The notes: a model not told the origin generated them from the letters alone. DNA of 20,000 nt from Atractiella rhizophila (GCA_021432655.1 MU271195.1:170385-190384); one strand, 5' to 3'. Counted from the stretch's first letter, positions 2,498-20,000 are shown. A program made the numbers and translations.

Positions 2498-5400
2498 ATG
2501 AAGCTCTTGCCTTATCAACTGGAGATCCGCAACCTCCTCTTTCCGACCTTGCCGAGCAACGACTCACTGCTAATCCTCGCGCCAGGATTAGGGTTGAGGA
2601 AAGTCATTGTCGCGTTTCTGCAAGCCCAAGTCGAGCTCGATTCCAACAATCCTGCCGTCGAAGGTGGAAAAACTGTGATCGTGAATGCCACAGAATCAGA
2701 TATTGATGGCATTCGCGAAGAAGTTGGTTTAAGTCTGGTCGACCTGGATGGTCTTAACGGTGTGGAAGAAAGGTAGAGACCCAAATTTTTAACGGAAACC
2801 GCTGACACAAGTGGTCCAAGATATCATGCCTATCTAGAGGAGTCTTGCAAACTTATCGCTGTGACTTCTAGAGTCTTTATTACCGACCTTTTGACTTCTA
2901 AGATACCCCTGAACAAGTTAAGCGGGATTGTGCTCCTGCACGCAGAGGAGTACGAATCGGAGCTTTGAAGTCTCTGTCTCTCACTAATAACGGCTGCTGT
3001 CAGGGTGACACCTAACTCAACGGAAGCCTTTATAGCAAAATTGTATCGCGATGGCAATAAGGTGTGTCTTGAGCAAACTAAAGACACTGTCTTACGTGCA
3101 GAAAGACCGGGTTTTTGAAAGCGTTCTCGGACGCTCCGGAAGCCTTTACTCACGGAATCTCTCCACTCCAGTCTGTCCTCAGATGTATGAAACTGCGAAA
3201 GGTGTTGCTCTGGCCAAGGTGAAGGGACTTCTGCCCCACCTGTAGTTTCTCATGACCCCGCACTGGTAGGTTCCATGAACTAGTACAAACATGCCTTTCG
3301 ACGGAGCATCGGGTGGATGTTATCGAGCTGCACCAACATTTGAGCGCAAACATGGATCAGATTCAGACCGCCATCATTGAGTGCATGGATGCCACACTTG
3401 CAGAAGTTCGTAAAGCGACCGCAGATGTGAGTTAACTTTACACATTGCCATCAAATCTGAATCCTGCTCAGGTCGACCCTGAAAATCTGGACATGGAAAA
3501 CGCTCTGTTTCGTTCCTTTGACTCGATTCTGCGCAATTATTTGGACCCAGTGTGGAACAAAATCTCTCCACGAACGCGGCAGCTTATCGGAGACCTCGCA
3601 ATGTTGCGGAGATTGCTACGGTGAGGCGTCCCTTCACTTTGAACTAGGTATCACTCATGAGGGTGCAGTTACCTCCTATCTTACGATTGCGTCTCGTTTA
3701 ATACACTAATTGAGACTATTATCCAGTCGAACACGACAAATCAGTTTACGGGAAACTTGAGACAGAATCAAAGTCCATGGTTGTTCTTGCAAGCTGCGGA
3801 AACAATCATTCAAACATCCCGAAGACGAGTCTATGAGAGACGAGATCCAGTGTCCCAATCGTTGCGGAAAACTCAGCCGCGAGAGGGAACACTGTTACCA
3901 GACGAAGACGAAGAAGCCGCTTTTGAGGCATCAGTGCAAACAACAGAGGAAACAGATGCCCATGCTGACTTGGATTGGCTGCCAGAAAATGTCGAGCTGA
4001 TTCTAGAGGAACAACCAAAGTGGGATGAACTGTTCCTTCTGATACAAGAGATCGAAAGGGAAATTTTCCTAAACCAACACGGGCAGTCAGCAAGTACTCA
4101 TTCCATTTGAGTCGTCACCAAAAATGTTCATTTTTGTCATGAAAAGCTTCACGCAACACAATCCTCATCATGTGTTCCTCGGCGTCGACCTGTGCCGCCC
4201 TCCGCGAGTACATTTGCGACCGACACGATGAAGACCACAGGCAACCACAACGGTTTCACAAAATGATGCTGCGTCGTTTCAGAGAATATCTGTTAGGGAT
4301 GAAGGATTTGTCCAGTTCAAAGAAGGTCTCCGGTCAGGCGGTGGACTCGACCCAAATGGAGACATCTACGACAGATGACCATCTCAGTGCTGGACTCAAG
4401 AGAAAAGCAGAATGGAGTCGTGGCAGAGCACCAGCGAACAAGAGACGCAGAACTCGCGGAGGTTCTGTAACCGCTGCATCATCGCAGGATATGAATGGTC
4501 GCCAAGTTGCAGACGGATTTGCACTGAACACTGCGTACACGGCCCCGTCTCTATTTGGGTGGCTAAATTTTCATCAGGTTACTGGAGAAATTAAGTCTCG
4601 AGACGATGCCACAGCCCCTTACAAGTACAAGTCTTCTTGACGGGTCATCCTTGGAAGACAACTTTTGCCTCCTGGAACCGGACAACGAGGTTGTCATACA
4701 GTCCTACTCTGGGGATGATGATGACTACTTACTCGAGGAATTGCGGCCTCGCTTCATTATCATGTTTGAGCCAGATCCTGCATTCATACGCAGAGTAGAG
4801 GTAGGTGAATACGCATCTCCGCTGGTTACATTTGTTGATCTGGGACACAGGTCTTCCGTGCCAGCTATACCCATATAGCAATCCGTGTTTATTTCATGAT
4901 ATATTCGAACTCGACAGAAGAACAGGTCTATTTGAGCACGATTCGAAAAGAGAAAGATGCTTTCGAACGTCTCGTGCGAGAGAATGCGGTATTTCGATCG
5001 ACTTTCGTCCAACACAGCTTATTTATTGCTATCTAGAATATGGTCATCCCTCTGGAAGCAGAACACAGAGGCTCCCAATCTACCGAAGCAGATATCTCGC
5101 GCACAGTGAGCTCTCGCAAAGCAGGTGGCGGAATGGTGTCTGCTGTCCCACAACAGGTTTGTGCATGTCCAGCTTGTCGACGTGACTTGAACCAGCGCCA
5201 AGATCATCGTGGACCATCGCGAGTTTAGGTCTACGCTCCCATTCATGCTATACAGCTCAGGGCTCAAAGTCATACCCATGACGCTTTTAGTTGGTGACTA
5301 CGTCCTTAGCCCAACCATCTGCGTCGAACGGAAAAGCATTCCCGATCTGATACAAAGCTTGAGTTCTGGTCGGCTATACCAACAATGCGAATTGATGGTG

Positions 5401-6044
5401 GCTCAGTGAGATTGTTCTGTGTATTCCAAGTTGTGATGTGATTGACGGATGACACTCCTCCAGCTATCAAACACCTATCTTGCTAATCGAATTTTCTGAA
5501 AACAAATCTTTTAGTTTAGATGTATGTTCCTCGTCCCTATCAGACAACATCGCGCTCAGGCGGTCACAAGACATACACCAATTCTAATTCTAATCAGCCC
5601 GCGCGACCAACAGAAAGTGTTTACACTGATTTGGAGTCGCTCCAATCGAAAATTGTCCTTCTCACGATGTCGTTCCAAAAGTTGCGAATTATATGGAGCT
5701 CGTCGGCACACGAAACGACGCTTATTTTTCAAGACCTGAAACAAAGAGAAGAGGAGCCTGATGCGAAGACTGCTGTTGCCGTCGGAGAACAGCTGGAATC
5801 AGTGACGCGATTTGATCCAGGTGCCGAGAACTGGAATCAATCAGGGCAAGAAGCCCTCCTCTCACTGCCAGGTATTGATAACAAAAACTTTCGATATTTA
5901 ATGGAGAAGGCTGTCAACTTTCAGGAAGTGTGTGCCATGTCGAATGGAGGATTAGAGGATTGTATTGGGGCTGAACAAGGCCAAAAATTATGGAAGTTCC
6001 TGAACAGGTCAATTGAACAACCCCATACACATAATTCTGCCTAA
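2498..6044 (+). CDS. RAD1: XPF/ERCC4 DNA repair endonuclease (RAD1/rad16/MEI-9 family), multi-exon
   Basis: N-terminal LLILAPGLGL; GFLKAFSDAPEAF; RQNQSPWLFL; LEEQPKW; LEELRPRFIIMFEPDPAFIRRVE. ERCC4 nuclease core IIVDHREFRS...GDYVLSPTICVERKSIPDLIQSLSSGRLYQQ. C-terminal LRIIWSSS and HhH LLSLPGI. Stop at 6042-6044. Confidence 0.95.
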
Positions 6045-6629
6045 TGACATTGAAATGTATCACAGCCATTGTAACTATCACATCCAATGACAGCAGACTA
6101 ACATTTTATAGGCAAGCCTCCTTACCATAGGAAAGTGATACTTTGTTGAGCACTACCCACATCTCACATCGTTTGATATCTGATAACATCATATACTCAA
6201 TGTTTTTCAATTCAGCAGGCTCAAGATGGCTCCTCACCATTTCTCTTTTCTCCGTTCCATTCTTATACCACTCCGCTTCTTCAACCAGCCATTTTTTGCT
6301 TGATGACACACTAACAGTTATCAATACAGGTGTCTCTTCACCTTCAATGCCATTGCAGTTCTCACTCCACCTTTATCTCACTAGGTCCAATTCTCCTACC
6401 TTGATAAGTCTACAGCCTTCCTCTGTTCCCTCTTAATGTGCTGTTCTGCACTGTCTACACTCCTCCATGCAAGCTTTGTCAGATGCTCACTTGAGCTTCT
6501 AGGAGCATTAGATGGAAATATTAAATATTGGATATATTTTTATTCCTACTCATATTGTAAAATATAATATGTGATCATATTTTATTATGTAGATGTCAGG
6601 GCTGACACACTATAAGGCCCTTGATCTTC

Positions 6630-6860
6630 TTAGACACAGGTACTAGAAATCCCAGTTTTAGCATTGTTAAAGTAACCCATAGGGGACATCTGCATATATG
6701 GGATGCCAAACTATGGCTTTCCTCATTCTTTCAACTTCAGACATACCAGAAGAGCAACTTCAAACATACCGGTAGAGCAACTTCGGACATACCAGTAGAG
6801 GATAAGGCTCCTTGATCTGAGGAATTAAATTGCCAAGTCTCCACCATCACATGATCATCG
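6630..6860 (-). pseudogene. Heavily decayed copia integrase fragments in reverse orientation
   Basis: The minus strand resembles HSLASH..RC..GY...WDF..PVSKK (about 6630-6725) and the W-RLGHLN pre-integrase motif (about 6820-6850) seen in the other copia copies. Confidence 0.5.
6732..6800. repeat. 23-bp tandem repeat, 3 copies
   Basis: CAACTTCAGACATACCAGAAGAG / CAACTTCAAACATACCGGTAGAG / CAACTTCGGACATACCAGTAGAG. Confidence 0.9.
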
Positions 6861-7892: not shown

Positions 7893-8353
7893 AGAAGATC
7901 AAGAAGTTTAGAGAGGACAAGGAAGGCGCTTATTCCTCCAAGGAATTTGATCAATATCTTAAGGCCTGTGGTATCCAGCGCGAACAGACGAGCAAGAACT
8001 CTCCTCACCAGAATAGCAGGGCAGAACAAAGCAATAGGACGATTCAGGAGACTATGGTTGCCATGTTTGAAGAATCTGGGCTTCCGCTCTTTCTCTGGCC
8101 ATCTGTCGCTTCAGCGGTTGTCCACATTCGCAACAGACAGCTTCAAGCTTCAATCAACCATGCTATTCCCCACACAAAACTCACTGGACTTACTCCAACC
8201 ATCTCCAGATTCAGAATCATTGGATGCACTGCCTATGTTCAAGATCCTAAGCTCCTTCTGAACTTGTACTCGAAAATGCGCATTTCTAGGCTATTCCCTT
8301 GCAGCGAAAGGGTGGGAGTTCTGGGATCCCATTAGAAAGAAGGTCTACGTTCG

Positions 8354-8944
8354 TGTTAGGGCTGACACTATGTGCGGTCACCGACGGGCGATGCGTCTGT
8401 AGTGGAGATAAACCTAAGTGCATAATATGACATGAAGACTAACCTGTAGTGGAGATAAACCTAAGAGAATACTCTAAGGTCACCTCCACTACTCTCTGAT
8501 CTATATATACAAGCGGAATAACACTGCCACAGAGCGTAGGGGAGAGCAGATGAAACATATAAGAGAACTAAAGGAGAAGTTGAGAGAATCTGATGCTGGA
8601 TGGAGCTAGGGGACAGAGATTGGTGGTCAAAGATGATGATATTGATAGGGAAACACATACCTAGGGGACAGAGATTGGTGGTCAAAGATGATGACCGCCT
8701 AACCTGCCCCCTAGGGGGCTAAAACTCCGAAATGAAGCAAACACAACAAAGGTGGCTGACCACACAACACAAGACCACAAAATATAACACCTAATCCAAC
8801 AGAAGTGACAGTGGGATTACATGGAGTTAATAAGAGGAGGATAGGCACAATTGGGCTAAGTGGTAATGTAGGTGCAAATGGGCGAACGGGTGCCAATTCG
8901 CAGGGAACGCAAATGGGCAATTTGCGTAAGATGCAAACCTGACA
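8354..8944 (-). mobile_element. Solo LTR family B (about 365 bp net), TSD GTTCG, itself interrupted by a family A solo LTR
   Basis: Termini TGTTAGG...CCTGACA; GTTCG at 8349-8353 and 8945-8949. Removing it restores KKVYVRDVARFDERE. TATA-like TATATATA at 8502-8509. Orientation is inferred from the TATA-like box and the intron-like segment. Confidence 0.9.
8581..8801 (-). mobile_element. Solo LTR family A (221 bp), TSD GAAGT, nested in the family B LTR
   Basis: Reverse-complement homolog of the LTR at 11951-12117. GAAGT at 8576-8580 and 8802-8806. Confidence 0.93.
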
Positions 8945-10361
8945 GTTCGAGATGTTGCCAGATTTGATGAGAGAGAGATGCTCTGCAAGGTGAGAAAGGA
9001 GAAAATTATGTTGGAAGAGCCACAGGGACAACTTGATGAGTGGAAGCAGCATCAGGATCAGGTGGGAGATGGACAGAACAATGCTCCAGCCGCTCCTCCA
9101 GTCAGGATTTCGCTAGACAACGACGAGGAAGATGAAGATGCATGGATTCAACAGCCAGGAGGAGCACCGCCTACACCTCAGGAACAACACAGACCACTTG
9201 GAATACAGTCTCCAAATCGATTTCAGCCCCTGCAGGTCGTCAAAGAAGAAGAAAGAGAGGCGTCTCCAGACCCACTACAGCTTGTGCCTGAACGCTTTAG
9301 GACACCACCTCGTCAGTACACCATGCAGAGAGATCCTTGGACAGGAGTTCACATGCCTACATTCTCAGAGTCTCCAGATCCACTCCAGATCATCCCAACA
9401 ATGCCAGATCGACCTCCTCCAGCAGCTACAACACCTCCTCCTGTCACCAGGTCTTCAAGAATTTATTCTACAAGTAGAGGACGTCCTGTCGACAGATTTA
9501 GGACCCTAGAAGCGCCTCAAAACAACGACAAAGGGTCAACAGACGAGCTTGGGATGTTGGTATAGGAATGTGACATCCTCACTGAGCCAGAGGCGATGGA
9601 ATATGGCTATATGCTTGTCACAGAACATGCCATGAGTGCAGCAACAGGAGTAGAGGTCCCTCAGTCATATTCAAGAGCGATGGCAAGCCCAAATGCGAAG
9701 GAATGGCATGAAGCGACAGTGAAGGAGATTCAATCTCACTTGGACAACAAGAGTTGGATTCTGGTCAAACCGCCTAAAGGAGCAAAAATCGTTGGTTCTC
9801 GATGGGTGTTTGCGGTTAAGAAGAAGTCGGATGGTTCTATCGAGCGCTTCAAGGCCAGATTCGTCATCAAGGGGTTCTCTCAACGCTCTGGATTCAACTA
9901 CTTTGATACTTTTGCATCAACGGTCAAATGGGCGACACTTAGGACGATTCTTTCGCTCGCTTGTGTCTTGGACATGGAGCTGGAGTCAGTGGATATCTCT
10001 ACGGCATTAACGGCGATATGGATGCAGAGGTCTATGCACAACAACCAGAAGGTCATCCACAGGGTCCTCCAGAGTACGTTCTCAAGGTAATCAAGGCCAT
10101 CTATGGCACAAGGTAAGGAGGACGTCAATGGCAGAAGAAACTCGATAAGGAACTCGTTGATATGGGATTTAAGAAGATCAAGAGCGACTCTAGTCTGTGG
10201 ATTTACTCGAAGGCGGACATCAAAGTACTTGTCCCGGTCTTTGTGGATGATATTACGATCGCTAGCACATCAAAGGGTGCTGTAGAGGACTTCAAGAGGG
10301 AGTTAGGAAAGCGATTCAAACTCAGAGACCTTGGACCAACGGAATTCCTACTTGGGGTTCG

Positions 10362-10570
10362 TGAGAGAATCTGATGCTGGATGGAGCTAGGGGACAGTGA
10401 TTGGTGGTCAAAGATGATGACATTGATAGGGAAACACATACCTAGGGGACAGTGATTGGTGGTCAAAGATGATGACCGCCTAAACTGCCCCCTAGGGGGC
10501 TAAAACTCCGAAGTGAAGCAAACAAAACAGAGGTGGCTGACCACACAAACATATAACACCTAATCCAACA
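10362..10570 (-). mobile_element. Solo LTR family A (209 bp), TSD GTTCG, inserted in the RT of element 1
   Basis: GTTCG at 10357-10361 and 10571-10575. The empty site CTTGGGGTTCGTATTAGG is present in element 3 (about 17723-17740, minus strand). Confidence 0.95.
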
Positions 10571-11647
10571 GTTCGTATTAGGAGAGATAGAAAGCGAAGA
10601 ATGATGTGGTTGGATCAAGAACAGTATGTCAAGGACCTTCTGGAACGCCAACAGATGGATGACTGCAACCCTGTCCTCACTCCTCTCAACATTGGACACG
10701 GTCTCAGCAAGCAGGACTGCCCTCAGAAAAAGGAAGAACAAGAAGAAATGCGCACAATCCCTTACAGCAACGTTGTTGGCTCCATGATGTACTTGGCCAT
10801 CTCCACTCGTCTGGATATTGCTCACGCAGTCTCTGTCCTTGGAAAGTACCTCTCTAATCCTGGAAAGAAGCACTGGGAAGCGGCCAAGCATCTTCTATGG
10901 TACCTCAAAGGCACTCAGAACTTAGGAATTGAGTATTCTGCAACTGGTTTTGACCTCAAGCAACCTTTTCACACTTTCTGCGATGCAGATTTTGCTGGGT
11001 GCAAGGATACTGGACGTTCTACGGGAGGCTATCTCCTCAAGATAGGCAATGGAGTGGTCAGTTGGAGCAGCAAACTACAATCCCTCGTTGCCCTTTCCAC
11101 AACTGAAGCAGAATATGTCTCAGGAGTCTCAGCTGGCCAAGAAGTCGTCTGGCTAAGGAATCTTTTAGAAGAAATTGGCTTCGCTCCTCAAGGTCCTACT
11201 CCCCTCTTCACAGACAGTAGCAGCGCTCTCCAGGTATCCAAGAACCCTGAGCACCATGGTCGAATGAAACACCTGGACCTTTGCTTTTATTGGCTCAGAG
11301 ATGTTGTTGAGATGGGCAAGATCAGTCCAGTCTTCTGTCGGGGTGTCGATATGCCAGCAGACCTCCTCACCAAGACACTTCCAGTAGCTAGCGTGGATAA
11401 GTTTCGACTTATGATGGGTTTGCGCCCCTACCCAAGTGTATGAGGCAGTTATGGGGCGCAATAAAAAAATCCTTTCCCCCTCTGTGGAGTTATAAGACGC
11501 CGCTTTTAGCGGTACGAAGACTTTTCATCTTCTTTTCATGCAAAACTAATATGCTTTCTGCTTTATATCGAGTATACATTGTATGAATTTGGTGGGAGAT
11601 TCTCTGGATGTGGTGGGAGCGTCAAGAGACAGCTGCCCAGGTGGTAG

Positions 11648-11782
11648 TGTTAGTTGTAGTGTGTTGTTTTGGTCATCTGCCTCTTATGACTCATATGAGT
11701 CATCACTATGTAGTTTAGTTTTGCCTAGGGGTGTTGGTGCTCATTATTGACCACCAACTACTCCTAGCCTTAGATCCTTACA
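11648..11782 (+). repeat. 3' LTR of element 1 (family C, about 135 bp, form lacking the intron-like segment)
   Basis: TGTTAG...CCTTACA, preceded by PPT-like AGGTGGTAG (AGGTGGGAG in element 3). Homologs at 14496-14642 and 15987-16126. The left boundary is inferred from the PPT; no 5' LTR is available to confirm it. Confidence 0.8.
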
Positions 11783-11950
11783 CATTTTGGCTATGCAAAG
11801 ACAGTGGCTTTGGTTTCTCAGTCATTACTGGAAGAACCTTACAAAAGATGTCAGAAGATATGTTGACTCCTGTCCGAGCTGCCAGAGAAATAAAGCTGTA
11901 AATCAGAACCCATTGGAGCTTTCAGACCCTCATGTATACCACCATCAAGA
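11783..11950 (+). pseudogene. Ty3/gypsy integrase zinc-binding domain fragment
   Basis: HFGYAKTVALVSQ, then a frameshift, then YWKNLTKDVRRYVDSCPSCQRNK. This is the typical gypsy integrase zinc-binding motif. Confidence 0.8.
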
Positions 11951-12117
11951 TGTTGGATTAGGTGTTATATTTCATGGTGTTATGTTTGTGTGGTCAGCCA
12001 CCTCTGTTTTGTTTGCTTCACTTCGGAGTTTTAGCCCCCTAGGGGGCAGTTTAGGCGGTCATCATTTTTGACCACCAATCTCTGTCCCCTAGCTCCATCC
12101 AGCATCAGATTCTCTCA

Positions 12118-12127
12118 TGGTAGCGAG
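12118..12127 (+). promoter_or_regulatory. Primer binding site, probably for initiator tRNA-Met
   Basis: TGGTAGCGAG directly follows the LTR's terminal CA. TGGTAGCG matches the Ty1-type tRNAi-Met PBS. Confidence 0.8.
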
Positions 12128-12304
12128 AGAGGTGGCTAGTGATTGACAGATCAGTTTTGCCACCCACTTGGTTGAAAATTTTGATCACTCAGCCATCCGT
12201 TGTCCAATCGGTTTGAAACGTTGGGATCATAAACGAGACCCCCTTACGCCTATATCCACCCATTTCTACGAAGATCGGACGATCCAAACTCGAATTTTAT
12301 CACC

Positions 12305-13297
12305 ATGGCCGAAGAAAGTAAAATTTTGATTACCCCCCTTGGAGAGAAGAACTATGGCACCTGGTGCATTGATATGCAGGAGGAATTGATGCGAAAGGGG
12401 TTATGGGAGATAGTCTCTGGAGTGGAGACAAAACCAGAAGATTTGAAGGAACAAAAACAGTGGCAAAAGGACAGCTCCAAAGCGGCTGGGATCCTGTTCC
12501 TTAGCCTAGAAGCGACCCAGAAAGCCCATGTGGTCTCTGTCCTTCAAGATCCAGTCAAGATCTGGTCTACCCTTCAAGAAATCCACCAACAGAAGCGCTC
12601 CTCAACTCGTTTCACTGCCCTCAACACCCTCCTTGCCATCCAGAAGAAGGAAAACGAATCTCTCATCACCCTGTGTGCCAGAAGCGACCAGCTGCTTCTA
12701 GACTTCACCAACACGCTTTCCAAAGACTATTCCCTTGATGATTTGAAGGAAGATCTCCAATCCTTCGCTCTCATTCGCTCCTTAGGCCCAGAATACACTA
12801 GTTTTGTCCAGAACTTAACCCTGATGACATCCACCGACCTCCAATCGATCAAACAAGCATTCTACTCGATCCAAGCCACCAAGAACTCGGAGGAAGCCAT
12901 CTCCAACACTCAAATGGCAAATCAGGAGATCCAAGCCACCAAGAACTCGGAGGAAGCCATCTCCAACACTCAAATGGCAAATCAGGCATCCAGCAGCAAC
13001 AGAGGACGAGGAGGATGGCATCCCAGAGGTGGCAGAGGTGGTGGAAGAGGAGGAACTCGAGATTTTTCGCAATCTGTGTGCAACTACTGCCACAGAAAAG
13101 GCCACTTCATCTCCCACTGCCCAGAAACTGCTTCTGGACGCAATAGGATCGAGTTGGAGAAGTACAGATCGAAGTATGGCAAGCTGGAAGTGGTGAAGGA
13201 AGCCAAAGTCGAAGGGGGAAAGCCAGAATTCGCTGGAGAGACAAGTTATGCAGCGGTAGATGATACCATTAGTCGCCAGAAAGCTGGGACTGACTAG
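12305..13297 (+). CDS. Copia Gag (330 aa) with CCHC zinc knuckle; ends at a TAG just before the protease motif
   Basis: N-terminus LGEKNYGTW...LMRKGLWEIVSG, an RGG-rich tract, and CNYCHRKGHFISHC. Confidence 0.88.
   Translation: MAEESKILITPLGEKNYGTWCIDMQEELMRKGLWEIVSGVETKPEDLKEQKQWQKDSSKAAGILFLSLEATQKAHVVSVLQDPVKIWSTLQEIHQQKRSSTRFTALNTLLAIQKKENESLITLCARSDQLLLDFTNTLSKDYSLDDLKEDLQSFALIRSLGPEYTSFVQNLTLMTSTDLQSIKQAFYSIQATKNSEEAISNTQMANQEIQATKNSEEAISNTQMANQASSSNRGRGGWHPRGGRGGGRGGTRDFSQSVCNYCHRKGHFISHCPETASGRNRIELEKYRSKYGKLEVVKEAKVEGGKPEFAGETSYAAVDDTISRQKAGTD
12868..12986 (+). repeat. Perfect in-frame 60-bp tandem duplication in gag
   Basis: IQATKNSEEAISNTQMANQ occurs twice, identical at the DNA level. 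Confidence 0.95.
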
Positions 13298-14495
13298 ATT
13301 ATTGATACAGGAGCAACTTCATCAATGACTCCACATTCCCACTTCTTCAAATCCTATCAAAAACACGTTGTACCCATCAGAGTTGCAAATGGAGAAGTGA
13401 TCTGGTCTACTGGGATAGGAGAAGTGGTGATTGAGGCGAAATTGGAGGATAAAAAGTCGAAGAAGGTCACCATTCACAATGTCCTACACGTCCCCAAATT
13501 GTGCAGCAATCTCCTATCTGTTTTCAAGCTCACAATCTTCGAAGGTGTAACTGTGACCATCATTGGGAGCAGAGTACGCTTCCTCAAGGCTGGAAATCCC
13601 TGTTTCACAGCGACAGTTGATCACAGGAGAGGAAGCATGAATGCCATCATTGATGGAAGAACACTCATGGCCTCAGAATTCGTTGCACACGCCTCCTCTC
13701 CCCTCTAAACGCTTCCCTGTGGCACAGGAGACTTGCCCACTTAAATCATGAAGATGTAAAGCGAATGCTGAAGAAAGGACTCGTGAAAGGAATGATTCTG
13801 GACTCAGAGGACCCTCCTGACCCCATCTGTGAGCCCTGCATCGCTGGGAAGCAGCATAGGATCTACAACAAGGCTGCAGAGAATAGGGAGACGGAAATTT
13901 TAGGGAGGATCAGCTCAGATCTTCATGGACCGCTCCCAGTTGCCTCAAGAGAAGGATTTCGCTATTGGGTGACGTTTATAGACGAGGCAACAAGTCACTG
14001 GACGATTGCTTTTCTCAGGAAGAAGTCAGAAGCACCTCAACGCTTTAAGGAGTACAAAGCTGTGATGGAGACCTTGACTGGAAGGAAAATCAAGAGATTC
14101 AGGGAGGACAAAGAAGGCGCCTACTCCTCAACAGATTCGAAATTGTGGCATCCAGCATGAGCAAACGATTAGAAACTCTCCTCATCAAAATGGGAAAGCA
14201 GAGAGAGCAAATAGGACGATTCAGGAGGGTATGGTGGCGATACTGGAGGAATCTGGTTTGCCACTATTCCTCTGGCCTCACCTTGCTTCGGCTGTTGTTC
14301 ACATCAGGAACAGATCCCCCTCTTCCTCCATCCATCACTCCATTCCCTACACAAAATTAACAGGACAATTGGTCGATATTTCACATTTCAGAGCTCCACT
14401 GCCTATGTCCAAGTTCAGAAGGAAGAAAGACAGCACAGTCTGGCATCCCATACACGCAGATGTGCCTTTATAGGTTACTCTACCAACGCTAAAGG

Positions 14496-14642
14496 TGTAA
14501 GGATCTAAGGCTAGGAGTGTTTGGTGGTCAATAATAAGCACATTGGAGAAGTATAGAGAGACATACCTAGGAGTGGTTGGTGGTCAATAATGAGCACCAA
14601 CACTCCTAGGCAGAACTAAACTACATAGTGATGACTCATACG
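14496..14642 (-). repeat. Partial family C LTR (form carrying the intron-like segment), truncated on the U3 side
   Basis: Reverse complement of about 11694-11782 plus an extra 56 nt (14511-14566). No second TSD is visible. Confidence 0.88.
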
Positions 14643-15695
14643 AAATTGATCAACATCTGGTACTTTCCCATCCTTGATATCTGTGAAAAACTTCTTTACC
14701 ACATTCTCATCTATGCTTCACTTCCCCAACATATTCTTGCGAAGTGGGACATTGTTTAAGTTGGTCTTTGGCAGTGGGTACGGGACCTTGGACCAATACA
14801 GAAAGTTGTTGTCACATATGTTGCGCTTGTGATTGTTTGTATTCTTCTCACCATACCCATCCTTTTGCTTCTTGCATTGACCACAAGTCTTTTCAGCTCC
14901 AAGGTTGCCCTTCTTTGTTGGCTTTGTGTGCGTCACTTTCACTGGTGGAAGAAGTGTCATTTAGAGTGTCCAGAATACTTTGATTGCTGCTCAACACATT
15001 GTTAGTAAATTCCTTTTCTTTTTAATAAAATTGTTCAAACTCACAGTCTCCTCTGGCTACTCTCTGAATATGACGAGCAATCTCCTTCTCAATTGCAAAT
15101 AAACTATTTTTGTGTATCAAAGATTTGGGGGCTCTGAAAGGGCTAGATTATCGTGAGGCGATATCAGTGAACCTAGGCGTAAACAACCTCAACCTTCTAC
15201 AGTGTTGAGGTTGAGATGACGATTCCAGAGTTGAGAAGGATGGGATGGTTTTGGTGAATCCCAGGATGGAGTAGATAGTTGAGAGGTTGGAGTACGCGAT
15301 GAGATGTTGCTTGAATGAGTGAGAAAGTCGAAGTTTGATGACGGTACACCTAAATCAATGCCTTTAATACCCATTCCACAGTGAAACAAGAACAAGAAAG
15401 AACGGACCGGCTGCAAAATCAAGACTACTTTTGCGCTTACTGAAAGAAGCTTCTATCCCCTTGCTATTTCCAAGTGCAAAATCCAGATCCTTCTGTGAAT
15501 GCTCGCTTTCCTGATCATCTGATGAATAATCTCCAGAAACCATTACACCTTCAGTTTGAAAAAGAGAAATGTGATGTTTAAAGAGGTTATTGTTTATGTA
15601 GAATATACTTAACTGAGAAGTTAGTTGGACGTATTTGGTTATATTGTCGGTAACAGCTCAGAAACAGAGATAGAGGATTATTATGATGGAGAGTA

Positions 15696-15986: not shown

Positions 15987-18900
15987 TTTAAGGATCTAAG
16001 GTTGGTGGTCGTAATAATGAGGCATTGATGACTTCTAGAGGCAGAACTAAACTACATAGTGATGACTCATACGCGTCATAAGAGTCATAAGAGGCAGATG
16101 ACCAAAACAACACGCTACAACTAACACTCCCACCTGGGCAGCTGTCTCTTGATGCTCCCACCAAATCCAGAGAATCTCCCACCGAATTCACACAATGTAT
16201 ACTCAATATAAAGCAGAAAGCATATTAGTTTTGCAATGAAAAGAAGAGGAAAAGTCCTCGTACCGCTTAAAGCGACGTCTTATAACCCCACAGAGGAGGA
16301 AAGGGATTTTATTGCGCCACATAACTGCCTCAGACACTTGGGTAGGGGCGCAAACCCATCATAACTCGAAACTTGTCCACGCTGGTGACTGGAAGTGCCT
16401 TGGTAAGGAGGTCTGCTGGCATATCGACACCCGGACAGAAGACTGGACTGATCTTGCCCATCTCAACAACATCCCTGAGCCAATAAAAGTGAAGGTCCAG
16501 GTGTTTCATTCGACCATGGTGCTCAGGGTTCTTGGATACCTGGAGAGCGCTGCTGCTGTCTGTGAAGAGGGGAGTAGGACCTTGAGGAGTGAAGCCAATC
16601 TCTTCTAAAAGATTCCTTAGCCAGACAACTTCTTGACCTGCTGAGACTCCTGAGACATATTCTGCTTCGGTAGTAGAAAGGGCAACGAGGGTTTGCAGTT
16701 TGCTGCTCCAACTGACTGCTCCGTTGCCTATCTTGAGGAGATAGCTGTAATACGAATAACATAAATGAGCTTCTTCGTACTTTATGAGTCATTTTCTTTT
16801 GTCGCAGTCTTGCTTCCGTGACCTCGTTTCTCTCCCTCACACACAACCACCATCTTCTCTGAGCTTGCCTGTATTGAGGTATAGCTAGTGCTGTGTGTGA
16901 GGTGAGTACTCGTTAATTTCTACCTTTATTGTGCTTTGCTCATCGGGCACTTGTTTAAGGGCACATTTCATCTCCCTTTCCGAGTTCGAGGTATTTTATT
17001 GTTCTAGAACACTCAAAGAGGGTGTGTTATTTCCTTTTCACCCTCTTCTCGCTTATTCATGTCCGTTCTCTTTCGTAGGGCTGTGCCAACAGCCTTGTCC
17101 GCTCTCTGTTAGCCCTCGCGGACTCTTTGGGTGTTTTAGGTACGCATACTTCATTGTTACTTATGCTTCTATGTTCCTTTTCTTATACTATGCAAACCAT
17201 GTTTTAGAACCCATTATTTCGAACTCACCGCCGCTAAACGAGTCTTGCCAGCTTTCACTTAGTCGCATTATAATAGCCTCCCGTAGAACGTGCAGTATCC
17301 TTGCACCCAGCAAAATCTGCATCGCAGAAGGCGTGAAAAGGTTGCATGAGGTCAAAACCAGCTGCACAATACTCGATTCCTAAGTTCTGAGTGCCTTTGA
17401 GGTATCGTAGAAGATGCTTGGCCGCTTCCCAGTGCTTCTTTCCTGGGTTAGAGAGGTACTTTCCGAGGACAGAGACTGCATGAGCGATATCTGGACGAGT
17501 GGAGATGGCCAAGTACATCGTGGAGCCAACAACGTTGCTGTGAGGGATTGTGCGCATTTCTTCTTGTTCTTCCTTTGTCTGAGGGCAGTCCTGCTTGCTG
17601 AGACCGTGTCCAACATTGAGAGGAGTGAGGACAGGGTTGCAGTCGTCCATCTGTTGGCGTTCTAGGAGGTCCTTAACATACTGTTCTTGATCCAACCACA
17701 TCATTCTTCGCTTTCTATCTCTCCTAATACGAACCCCAAGTAGGAATTCCGTTGGTCCAAGGTCTCTGAGTTTGAATCGCTTTCCTAACTCCCTCTTGAA
17801 GTCCTCTACAGCACCCTTTGATGTGCTAGCGATCGTAATATCATCCACAAAGACCGGGACAAGTACTTTGATGTCCCCCTTCGAGTAAATCCACAGACTA
17901 GAGTCGCTCTTGATCTTCTTAAATCCCATATCAACGAGTTCCTTATCGAGTTTCTTCTGCCATTGACGTCCTCCTTACCTTGTGCCATAGATGGCCTTGA
18001 TTACCTTGAGAACGTACTCTGGAGGACCCTGTGGATGACCTTCTGGTTGTTGTGCATAGACCTCTGCATCCATATCGCCGTTAATGCCGTAGAGATATCC
18101 ACTGACTCCAGCTCCATGTCCAAGACACAAGCGAGCGAAAGAATCGTCCTAAGTGTCGCCCATTTGACCGTTGATGCAAAAGTATCAAAGTAGTTGAATC
18201 CAGAGCGTTGAGAGAACCCCTTGATGACGAATCTGGCCTTGAAGCGCTCGATAGAACCATCCGACTTCTTCTTAACCGCAAATACCCATCGAGAACCAAC
18301 GATTTTTGCTCCTTTAGGCGGTTTGACCAGAATCCAACTCTTGTTGTCCAAGTGAGATTGAATCTCCTTCACTGTCGCTTCATGCCATTCCTTCACATTT
18401 GGGCTTGCCATCGCTCTTGAATATGACTGAGGGACCTCTACTCCTGTTGCTGCACTCATGGCATGTTCTGTGACAAGCATATAGCCATATTCCATCGCCT
18501 CTGGCTCAGTGAGGATGTCACATTCCTATACCAACATCCCAAGCTCGTCTGTTGACCCTTTGTCGTTGTTTTGAGGCGCTTCTAGGGTCCTAAATCTGTC
18601 GACAGGACGTCCTCTACTTGTAGAATAAATTCTTGAAGACCTGGTGACAGGGGGAGGTGTCGAAGCTGCTGGAGGAGGTCGATCTGGTGTTGTTGGGCAG
18701 ATCTGGAGTGGATCTGGAGACTCTGAGAATGTAGGCATGTGAACTCCTGTCCAGGGATCTCTCTGCATGGTGTACTGACAAGGTGGTGTCCTAGGGCGTT
18801 CAGGCAGAAGCTGTAGTGGGTCTGGAGACGGCTCTCTTTCTTCTTCTTCTTCTTCTTCAACCCGAAGGTGCTGAAACCGATTTGGAGAATGTATTCCAAG

Positions 18901-20000
18901 TGGTCTGGGTTGGTCCTGAGGTGTAGGTGGTGCTCCTGGCTGTCGAATCCATCCTTCTTCTTCTTCTTCATCGTCGTCTAGCGAAATGCTGGCTGGAGGA
19001 GCGGCTGGAGCATTATTCTGTCCATTTCCCACCTGATCCTGACGCTCTTTCCATTCATCAAGTGGTCCCTGTGGCTCTTCCAACGCGTTCTCCTTCCTCC
19101 TGACTTTGCAAAGCATCTCCCTCTCATCAAATCTGGCAATATCTCGAGTGTAGACCTTCTTAGACACTGGATCCCAGAAATCCCAGCCTTTCGCTGCAAG
19201 GGAATAGCCTATAAATGCGCATTTTCGACTGTGAGATTGTAAGCTGTGTGGCCTTTCATCCTTCTGAACTTGAACGTAGGCAGTGCATCCAATGATTCTG
19301 AATCTTGAGATAGTTGGAGTAAGTCCAGTGAGTTTTGTGTGGGGAATAGCATGGTTGATCGAAGCTGAGGGAGATCTGTTGCGAATGTGGACAACTGCTG
19401 AAGCGATAGATGGCCAGAGAAAGAGAGGAAGTCCAGATTCTTCAAACATGGCGACCATAGTCTCCTGAATCGTCCTATTGGCTTGTTCTGCCCTGCCATT
19501 CTGGTGAGGAGAGTTCCTGATCGTCTGTTCGCGCTGAATACCACAGGCCTTGAGGTATTGATCGAATTCCTTAGAGGAATAAGCGCCTTCCTTGTCCTCT
19601 CTAAACTTCTTGATCTTCTTCCCAGTAACATTCTCTACCCAATTCTTGAAGGTCTTGAAGAGTTCTGGGGCCTCTGATTTCTTCTTGAGGAAAGCAATTG
19701 TACAATGATTTGTTGCTTCGTCGATGAAGGTGACCCAATATCGATATCCTTCTCTGGAAGTGACTGGAAGAGGTCCATGCAGGTCTGAGCTGATCCTACC
19801 CAGTACTTCCTTCTCTCTGGTCTCTGCTGACTTGTTGAAGACCCTATGCTGCTTCCCAGCTAGGCATGGCTCACAAATAGGGTCTGGATCATCCTCCAGG
19901 TCCAAAATCATCCCATTCACAAGTTCCTTCCTCTTCAGACGCTTGATGTCCTCATAATTCAGGTGTCCAAGTCTCCTATGCCATAGAGAAGCATCCATGG
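15987..20000 (-). mobile_element. Ty1/copia element 3 (family C), inverted relative to element 1; continues beyond the window
   Basis: Open integrase ORF 18526-19998 and RT pieces 18001-18495 and about 17273-17929. RNase H runs to the stop at 16330-16332. PPT at 16127-16135 and 3' LTR at 15987-16126. Confidence 0.95.
16746..17272 (+). mobile_element. 527-bp solo LTR (family D, possibly gypsy type), TSD ATAGC, in the RNase H of element 3
   Basis: TGTAAT...ATTATA (probably a mutated ATTACA). ATAGC at 16741-16745 and 17273-17277. Removing it restores STGGYLLKIG. Orientation is inferred from the splice-like motifs. Confidence 0.85.

Follow-up and report, generated by a model that had tools for sequence, protein, structure and literature searches.

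Results

The 20,000-nt stretch analysed here (the window; Atractiella rhizophila, GCA_021432655.1 MU271195.1:170385-190384) comes from a root-associated fungus and holds a nest of long terminal repeat (LTR) retrotransposons adjoining host genes; all positions below are those of the whole window. Four of its LTR copies, drawn from three families (A1 and A2, B, and C1), as well as a copy in a metagenome contig (L001), contain a segment of 47-56 nt that begins with GT, ends with AG, and closes with a repeat (R2) of the bases lying directly before the GT (R1). The initial annotation had read these segments as candidate introns that the element rebuilds in each replication cycle, and we take up below the anatomy of the module, its likeness to host introns, and the mechanisms that could maintain it.

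Anatomy of the module

Re-reading of the minus strand places the four window segments at the positions first annotated and returns the same lengths (Table 1). The duplication at the segment end was likewise recovered: R2 copies R1 at 34/34 nt in A1, 35/35 nt in A2, 22/22 nt in B and 28/28 nt in L001, and in C1 the two repeats agree over 31 nt with 2 mismatches, L001 having 'CT' where C1 has 'CC' and 'AC'. A scan of the window for direct repeats (exact, at least 15 nt, spacing 30-120) gave eight rows, four of which are the modules A1, A2, B and C1, the C1 row being a 15-nt exact piece of the longer repeat. The remaining four are a perfect 60-nt tandem duplication in gag (12868-12986, plus strand; 2.0 copies, 100% identical, in frame, in the truncated family-A element's gag open reading frame (ORF)) and three rows that overlap one another at 18838-18970, a region whose sole simple-sequence stretch is a 3-nt TTC array at 18838-18858. 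When read on the LTR sense strand, which is certain for A and C from the primer-binding site after the LTR and presumed for B, all four modules have the form AG/GT...AG and none of the other window repeats does. Because the dinucleotide frequencies of the window are 0.073 for AG and 0.054 for GT (product 0.004), it is very unlikely that two unrelated families would match AG/GT by chance; for both boundaries in two independent families the probability is of the order of 1e-4 or less, with segment size not counted.

The layout is the same in A, C and B: U3, then an arm, a loop and R1, then the segment (X, which begins with the GT, followed by R2 with its closing AG), and then a short U5. From R2 to the LTR end there are 25 nt in A, 15 nt in C and 43 nt in B, and the primer-binding site follows the LTR directly in A3 and L001. 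Since R plus U5 would be too long for 15 nt, the module in A and C must overlap R, which by this reckoning puts it in R/U5. The shortness of the stretch from R2 to the LTR end or primer-binding site (25 nt in A, 15 nt in C) also rules out a U3 enhancer tandem repeat for these two families; B, with its orientation presumed, may still be read in that way.

Table 1. Positions of the segments, LTR copies and other features of the window (slashes mark segment boundaries, read in LTR orientation).
Feature	Position	Strand	Details
A1 segment	8606-8660	minus	tag/GTATGT...CCCCTAG/ctc, 55 nt
A2 segment	10387-10441	minus	tag/GTATGT...CCCCTAG/ctc form as in A1, 55 nt
B segment	8397-8443	minus	cag/GTTAGT...CTACAG/acg, 47 nt
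C1 segment	14511-14566	minus	tag/GTATGT...CTCCTAG/cct, 56 nt
A1 LTR	8581-8801	minus	Solo LTR, family A, 221 nt, inserted in B LTR, target duplication GAAGT; arm 8695-8715, R1 8661-8694, X 8640-8660 (starts GTATGT), R2 8606-8639, terminal 25 nt 8581-8605
A2 LTR	10362-10570	minus	Solo LTR, family A, 209 nt, target duplication GTTCG; hairpin 10441-10496, R1 10442-10476, X 10422-10441, R2 10387-10421
A3 LTR	11951-12117	plus	5' LTR, 167 nt, of truncated copia element 11951-14495; single R 12059-12092 abutting terminal 25 nt; arm:R hairpin 12039-12092 retained
Primer-binding site TGGTAGCGAGAG	12118-12129	plus	Adjoins A3 LTR; identical 12 nt after C LTR in L001
B LTR	8354-8944	minus (presumed)	Solo LTR, ~365 nt own sequence, split by A1, target duplication GTTCG; TATATATA 8497-8504, hairpin 8446-8492, R1 8444-8465, X 8419-8443 (starts GTTAGT), R2 8397-8418, terminal 43 nt 8354-8396
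C1 LTR	14496-14643	minus	Family C, 5'-truncated; hairpin 14564-14612, R1 14567-14597, X 14542-14566 (starts GTATGT), R2 14511-14541, terminal 15 nt 14496-14510
C2 LTR	11483-11782 (5' edge approximate)	plus	3' LTR of copia element 1; single R ending 11767 abutting terminal 15 nt 11768-11782; hairpin 11725-11767
C3 LTR	16001-16329	minus	Decayed 3' LTR of inverted copia element 3; single R minus last 10 nt, no segment
XPF/RAD1 (ERCC4) gene	2498-6041	plus	Host gene, intron yardstick
RVT_2	9596-10090		Pfam domain
Retrotran_gag_2	12305-13297		Pfam domain
Pol_BBD, gag_pre-integrs, rve, SH3_retrovirus	18526-19998	minus	Pfam domains

Likeness to host introns

The host XPF/RAD1 gene served as the yardstick. 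Its ERCC4 exon (5203-5406) is 99% identical to a 978-aa Atractiella rhizophila protein (P0001), which maps to the gene as 14 exactly matching blocks. Of the 13 interruptions between these blocks, 12 are accounted for by GT-AG introns of 43-58 nt whose removal gives back the exact protein. For the remaining one (5521/5544, 22 nt) no intron of 25 nt or more fitted, and the public gene model may be in error at this point. These 12 introns have loose donors (GTR, GTA and the like) and end in YAG or AAG; a yTnAy motif occurs in 10 of them, in nine cases 12-21 nt from the 3' end.

The five LTR segments (47, 55, 55, 56 and 55 nt) start with GTATGT or GTTAGT and end in YAG, so that the fungal-type donor, the YAG end and the host-like size previously ascribed to them all stand. 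The branch-like signals, too, are as first described, with TTGAC 22 nt (A) and 18 nt (C) from the 3' end and nothing clear in B, where there is only a weak TTTAT at 13 nt. All five thus run from GT to AG and are of host-like length, with a branch-like motif in each that lies 10-25 nt before the 3' end. Each segment contains one or two ATGs, and the leader of A3, which has no segment, contains one 9-codon upstream ORF before gag. Judged by these signals, the segments are probably real spliceosomal introns of host type.

A predicted hairpin of the arm and R1

Beyond what had been annotated, the analysis brought out two LTRs that lack the segment (A3 and C2) and the pairing of arm and R1 as a single hairpin. 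In 7/7 LTR copies R is paired along its full length with the arm that precedes it (z -4.2 to -7.2 against shuffles), the arm forming the 5' half and R1 the 3' half of the stem. In A and C the stem reaches as far as the exon's final base and takes in the opening bases of the predicted intron; in B it stops 2 nt short of the donor. When the stretch from arm to R2 is folded, both the minimum-energy and the centroid structure in 3/3 families have the arm paired with R1, and X and R2 open; an RNA that starts at R1 is predicted to be unstructured (z +1.2, +1.4 and -0.4 in the three families). The 5' edge of the repeat coincides with the apical loop in all three. RNAalifold found a two-sided change in 1/16 pairs among six A and C hairpins, a comparison of low power, A and C differing mostly by coordinated indels, and an Rfam search of 8300-14700 gave no family at gathering score.

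Concerted repeats and loss of the segment

In the alignment of A with C, a 4-nt indel and differences at many positions separate their R, and X is recognisably homologous. Within copies the repeats agree: a T>A private to A2 stands in both of its repeats, and L001 has its 'CT' allele in R1 and R2 alike. R2 thus tracks R1 in A1, A2, L001 and the window copy of B, with the 2 mismatches of C1 as noted and a hint of an R2-only variant in DNA contigs of B. Because the two repeats are identical within most copies while R varies between copies, strongly so from A to C, we conclude that R1 and R2 appear to evolve in concert.

A3 and C2 lack exactly the segment, yet each has the R of its own family (A3 33/34 to A1, C2 identical to L001). 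Because X is homologous between A and C while R has diverged, the architecture predates the split of the two families; and X could not be re-created once lost, therefore the change runs from two R to one. On this comparison two-R elements, a lineage that has lasted since before A and C parted, have repeatedly given rise to one-R LTRs as by-products, and the persistence of two R argues for selection on the module.

Contigs from DNA sequencing runs, in which most of the joints and variants fall outside those listed, give hints only. Their summed depth is very high for the B and C LTRs and low for A. Among the variants listed, positions 8419 and 8421 of B, in X beside R2, vary towards the bases found upstream of R1, and in one B contig R2 and part of U5 are replaced.

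The elements that carry the LTRs

Pfam searches identified gag, integrase and RVT_2 domains of copia type on both strands; a BIG2_C fragment lies at the window's left end. In A and C, a copia-type gag is joined by an integrase lying ahead of the RVT_2 reverse transcriptase, the order of Ty1/copia (Pseudoviridae) elements, and the LTRs have TG...CA ends (TGTTGG...TCTCA), 5-bp target duplications and a primer-binding site right after the 5' LTR. By these features families A and C are identified as Ty1/copia LTR retrotransposons; their internal regions are 72-80% alike. The primer-binding site TGGTAGCGAGAG is presumably complementary to initiator tRNA-Met, and a gag ORF at 12305 follows A3 and this site. 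Family B, known from its LTR ends and target duplication only, is a third LTR family, unclassified as to superfamily.

In L001 the end of pol is followed by a full C LTR with a 55-nt segment and then by the primer-binding site. This order may reflect tandem elements, a one-LTR circle or assembly collapse of two LTRs; whichever it is, the contig indicates that elements which have kept internal sequence carry the module. L001 was the single locus in the metagenome scan, and a search of viral-contig and genome-contig collections found no further copies of the module.

Several other features of the nest were recorded. The two inverted copia elements are 99% alike over 1120 nt (9243-10362 against 17729-18848), with neighbouring segments at 86-95% and 3' LTRs at ~87%, a mosaic that points to recombinant elements or to gene conversion. 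The short stretch 11788-11950 (plus strand), which separates the LTRs C2 and A3, resembles by eye a fragment of a gypsy-type integrase zinc-finger region. The U3 of family C (11673-11705 on the plus strand, 16039-16093, and L001) has several TGACTC / GAGTCA motifs 30-60 nt upstream of the arm, which we take to be of AP-1/Gcn4 type. At 8385-8386, a CpG site, most of the B-LTR depth in the DNA contigs has T, A where the window has C, G, a family-wide CpG difference. A 25-nt piece like the terminal end of the B LTR (TGTCAGGGCTGACAC...) adjoins a decayed copia fragment at 6596-6650 and may be the remnant of a B-related insertion. Three tandem 23-nt units at 6732-6800 (86% matches, each with GGTATGT on the minus strand) were considered as a fourth module and rejected; they belong to a decayed copia integrase fragment and not to an LTR.

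Discussion

Reverse transcription of a spliced RNA erases its introns, and LTR elements are accordingly held either to avoid introns or to package unspliced RNA. We propose a cycle by which these LTRs could escape that rule. Transcription would start near the loop at the apex of the arm:R1 hairpin, giving an unstructured 5' end that is free of the arm and is spliced to R1-U5, a step that would also remove the one or two upstream ATGs. In the 3' LTR copy the arm would be transcribed and would hold both R1 and the donor locked within a hairpin (about -30 kcal/mol); this copy would stay unspliced, and the RNA would end in or just after R2. Minus-strand strong-stop DNA (anti-U5, anti-R1) would then be excluded from the locked R1 and anneal to the free R2, from which synthesis would copy X, R1, the arm and U3, so that the whole module is rebuilt. 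One-R LTRs would arise from landing on R1 or from splicing of both copies. Indirect hints of a start and end at these places are that in B TATATATA begins 44 nt upstream of R1 and that in all three families the edge of the repeat falls at the apex of the hairpin. If the start does lie at the loop, only the 3' copy has the arm, and the predicted fold would hide both the 3' donor and R1 from the strong-stop DNA, which are the two asymmetries that the model needs.

The behaviour of the repeats bears on this proposal. Of the combinations worked through (RNA start in R1, X or R2; RNA end after R1 or after R2), transfer in register would never copy one repeat onto the other, and an unspliced 5' end landing on R2 would add a unit per cycle; among those considered, only an R1-U5 5' end landing on R2 would overwrite R2 each cycle and keep two units. 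The regenerating model also ties together, more coherently than its rivals, five separate features: GT-AG edges, host-like size, position in R/U5, repeats that evolve together and a hairpin over R1. Splicing, transcription start, poly(A) site and landing site are nevertheless parts of the cycle that we infer, and the full cycle is accordingly offered as tentative, with a probability that we would put at just under even. The self-regenerating intron as first put forward is therefore upheld in part: host-like size and signals, position in R/U5, concerted R1 and R2, recurrent exact loss of the segment and a hairpin over R1 and donor speak for it, but the exact loss fits deletion between direct repeats equally well.

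Several observations weigh against the regenerating cycle. Exact loss of the segment is non-discriminating, in that splicing and direct-repeat deletion yield the same product. The inverted repeat folds about equally well antisense in A and C, which leaves a role at the RNA level as a matter of structure prediction. The orientation of B is presumed: TATATATA, which starts 44 nt upstream of its R1, is palindromic, no primer-binding site was seen, and the one pointer to the proposed sense strand, a weak one, is a hairpin more stable by 5.8 kcal/mol. A has a single TATA-like motif, ~85 nt upstream of R1; the 5' end of the RNA might accordingly carry the arm too, and in that case the model fails. 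The module-bearing sequences read number only five, and one of them, C1, an old truncated copy, has 2 mismatches between its repeats. In the DNA contigs, B position 8408 in R2 has A>G at ~35% depth, and its R1 partner 8455 is not among the 40 of 374 variants listed; R1 and R2 may thus differ in many B copies, contrary to overwriting in every cycle. Some B contigs have a third R unit with a different X (three variants), and the number of repeats can therefore change with no need for splicing.

In a rival account there is no splicing. The module would then be a partial tandem duplication (1.6 units) in R/U5 serving 3'-end formation or strand transfer, its hairpin and repeat an R-region structure, the A/T-rich and TATGT-like motifs of X poly(A) signals, and the GT..AG edges and size coincidental, with template switching by the reverse transcriptase homogenising the repeats. 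Direct repeats do expand and contract during reverse transcription, and one-R, two-R and three-R forms all occur here; GTATGT and TAGT resemble motifs which, at the boundary of R and U5 in Ty1, we take to serve 3'-end formation in yeast; and the strand symmetry of the hairpin in A and C, like the possible difference between R1 and R2 in many B copies, also counts in its favour. Coincidence would nevertheless have to supply AG/GT at the repeat edge together with a YAG end in two unrelated families (~0.004 per module and strand), and to bring 5/5 units into the host range of 43-58 nt with a branch-like motif at the right distance. A locked R1 moreover predicts runaway expansion, and in-register transfer no homogenisation, yet 5/5 sequences read have exactly two R. 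We therefore regard this account as unlikely, although it deserves serious consideration.

Alternatively, the segments could be real 5'-untranslated-region introns that are not regenerated, which raise expression or remove upstream ATGs while the element propagates through unspliced genomic RNA. Retroviruses keep their introns in this way as standard, the segments do look like host introns, and one-R copies, which would be the dead-end products of spliced RNA, occur; the three-R variants of B show that repeat number changes, and occasional out-of-register template switching or a shared second function could keep R1 and R2 alike. What this alternative does not provide is any reason for the 3' part of an intron to copy the end of the exon in three families, for the edge of that copy to fall at the hairpin apex, or for R1 to equal R2 while R diverges between A and C, and we consider it quite improbable. 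Decaying, functionless duplications that resemble introns by accident are a most remote prospect: all window copies are indeed solo, truncated or nested LTRs in a transposon graveyard, but the architecture is common to A and C with internal regions only 72-80% alike, R1 equals R2 within most copies, and the hairpins have z of -4 to -7.

Parts of the module have counterparts elsewhere. Template switching by reverse transcriptase is known to delete and duplicate direct repeats, as in retroviral U3 enhancers, and family members here likewise have one, two or three units; the A and C modules differ from such enhancers in lying in R/U5, in having edges at AG/GT and YAG, and in a unit length equal to that of host introns. 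In one model introns are born by tandem duplication of an exonic AGGT, which leaves a downstream exon that starts with a copy of the 5' part of the intron. As in that model, the 3' end of the intron here copies the end of the upstream exon and its removal restores a continuous sequence, but this origin is ruled out, as U5 (CTCCAT, CCTTAG, ACGCAT) is unlike X (GTATGT, GTTAGT) in all families. The proposed landing on R2 would be an ordinary first-strand transfer of strong-stop DNA via R, as in retroviruses and LTR elements, except that the 3' LTR would have R twice and the transfer would choose the downstream copy. The repeat of 22-35 nt is short, as are the R regions of copia-type LTRs, described as very short in the text available of one report (PMC3601003). 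The LTRs of maize Sireviruses (Ty1/copia) have a palindrome-rich cis-regulatory region, discussed in the accessible part of its description as a hotspot of small interfering RNAs (PMC4728375). They share with the LTRs here hairpin-forming inverted repeats; as far as that description goes, they differ in that here a single hairpin adjoins a donor-like site and has its 3' strand repeated downstream.

The nearest analogue is the intron of Penelope. In Drosophila virilis this 75-bp intron lies 46 bp downstream of the start site and is spliced in most transcripts; spliced and unspliced RNAs both occur, its deletion nearly abolishes reporter expression, and the authors propose selection to maintain the intron, according to the accessible text (PMC2377424). 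As there, a short intron, spliceosomal in Penelope and predicted to be so here, lies near the start, here a proposed one, and inside a terminal repeat. Penelope-like elements, as outlined in the portion of a second source at hand, have a telomerase-like reverse transcriptase together with an endonuclease of GIY-YIG type, use target-primed reverse transcription and form pseudo-LTRs from tandem copies (PMC11167929). A and C differ from them in their copia-type gag, integrase and RVT_2, their true LTRs, their primer-binding site and their 5-bp target duplications, and the copia-type domains rule out a Penelope-like identity. Nor does the accessible text on Penelope describe a copy of the upstream exon at the 3' end of its intron (PMC2377424), which the LTR modules here do have. 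In agreement with the initial annotation, which knew of no such description, a search of the literature outside subscription-only papers turned up no account of LTRs that hold an intron whose 3' end is such a repeat.

Basidiomycetes offer a plausible host context in which an intron would be rewarded, a consideration that bears on motive and not on mechanism. From the accessible parts of the reports, intron removal greatly lowers mRNA in Cryptococcus (PMC3744415), transgene expression needs introns in Armillaria and Ganoderma (PMC4935854, PMC8379801), and poorly spliced transposon transcripts feed RNA interference (RNAi), the last with citation of Dumesic 2013 (PMC7175516).

It is possible, although we lean somewhat towards doubt on the whole of it, that the unit of arm, R1, X and R2 is a dedicated device reconciling splicing with retrotransposition, in which a hairpin present only in the 3' RNA copy blocks splicing and steers strong-stop DNA to R2, so that the element profits from a spliced mRNA marked by an intron while every new DNA copy regains that intron, and that at least two unrelated LTR families in a single basidiomycete have acquired or preserved this device. 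The model gives a pattern for genome searches: a hairpin arm, then R, then GT...R-AG, beside the LTR end. If it is true, strong-stop DNA made on a spliced 5' end would restore an intron, a novel escape from the rule of intron erasure and a novel use of the first strand transfer, and these elements would represent transposons adapted to hosts that express intron-less transcripts poorly or route them to RNAi, as the parts available of reports on other Basidiomycota describe.

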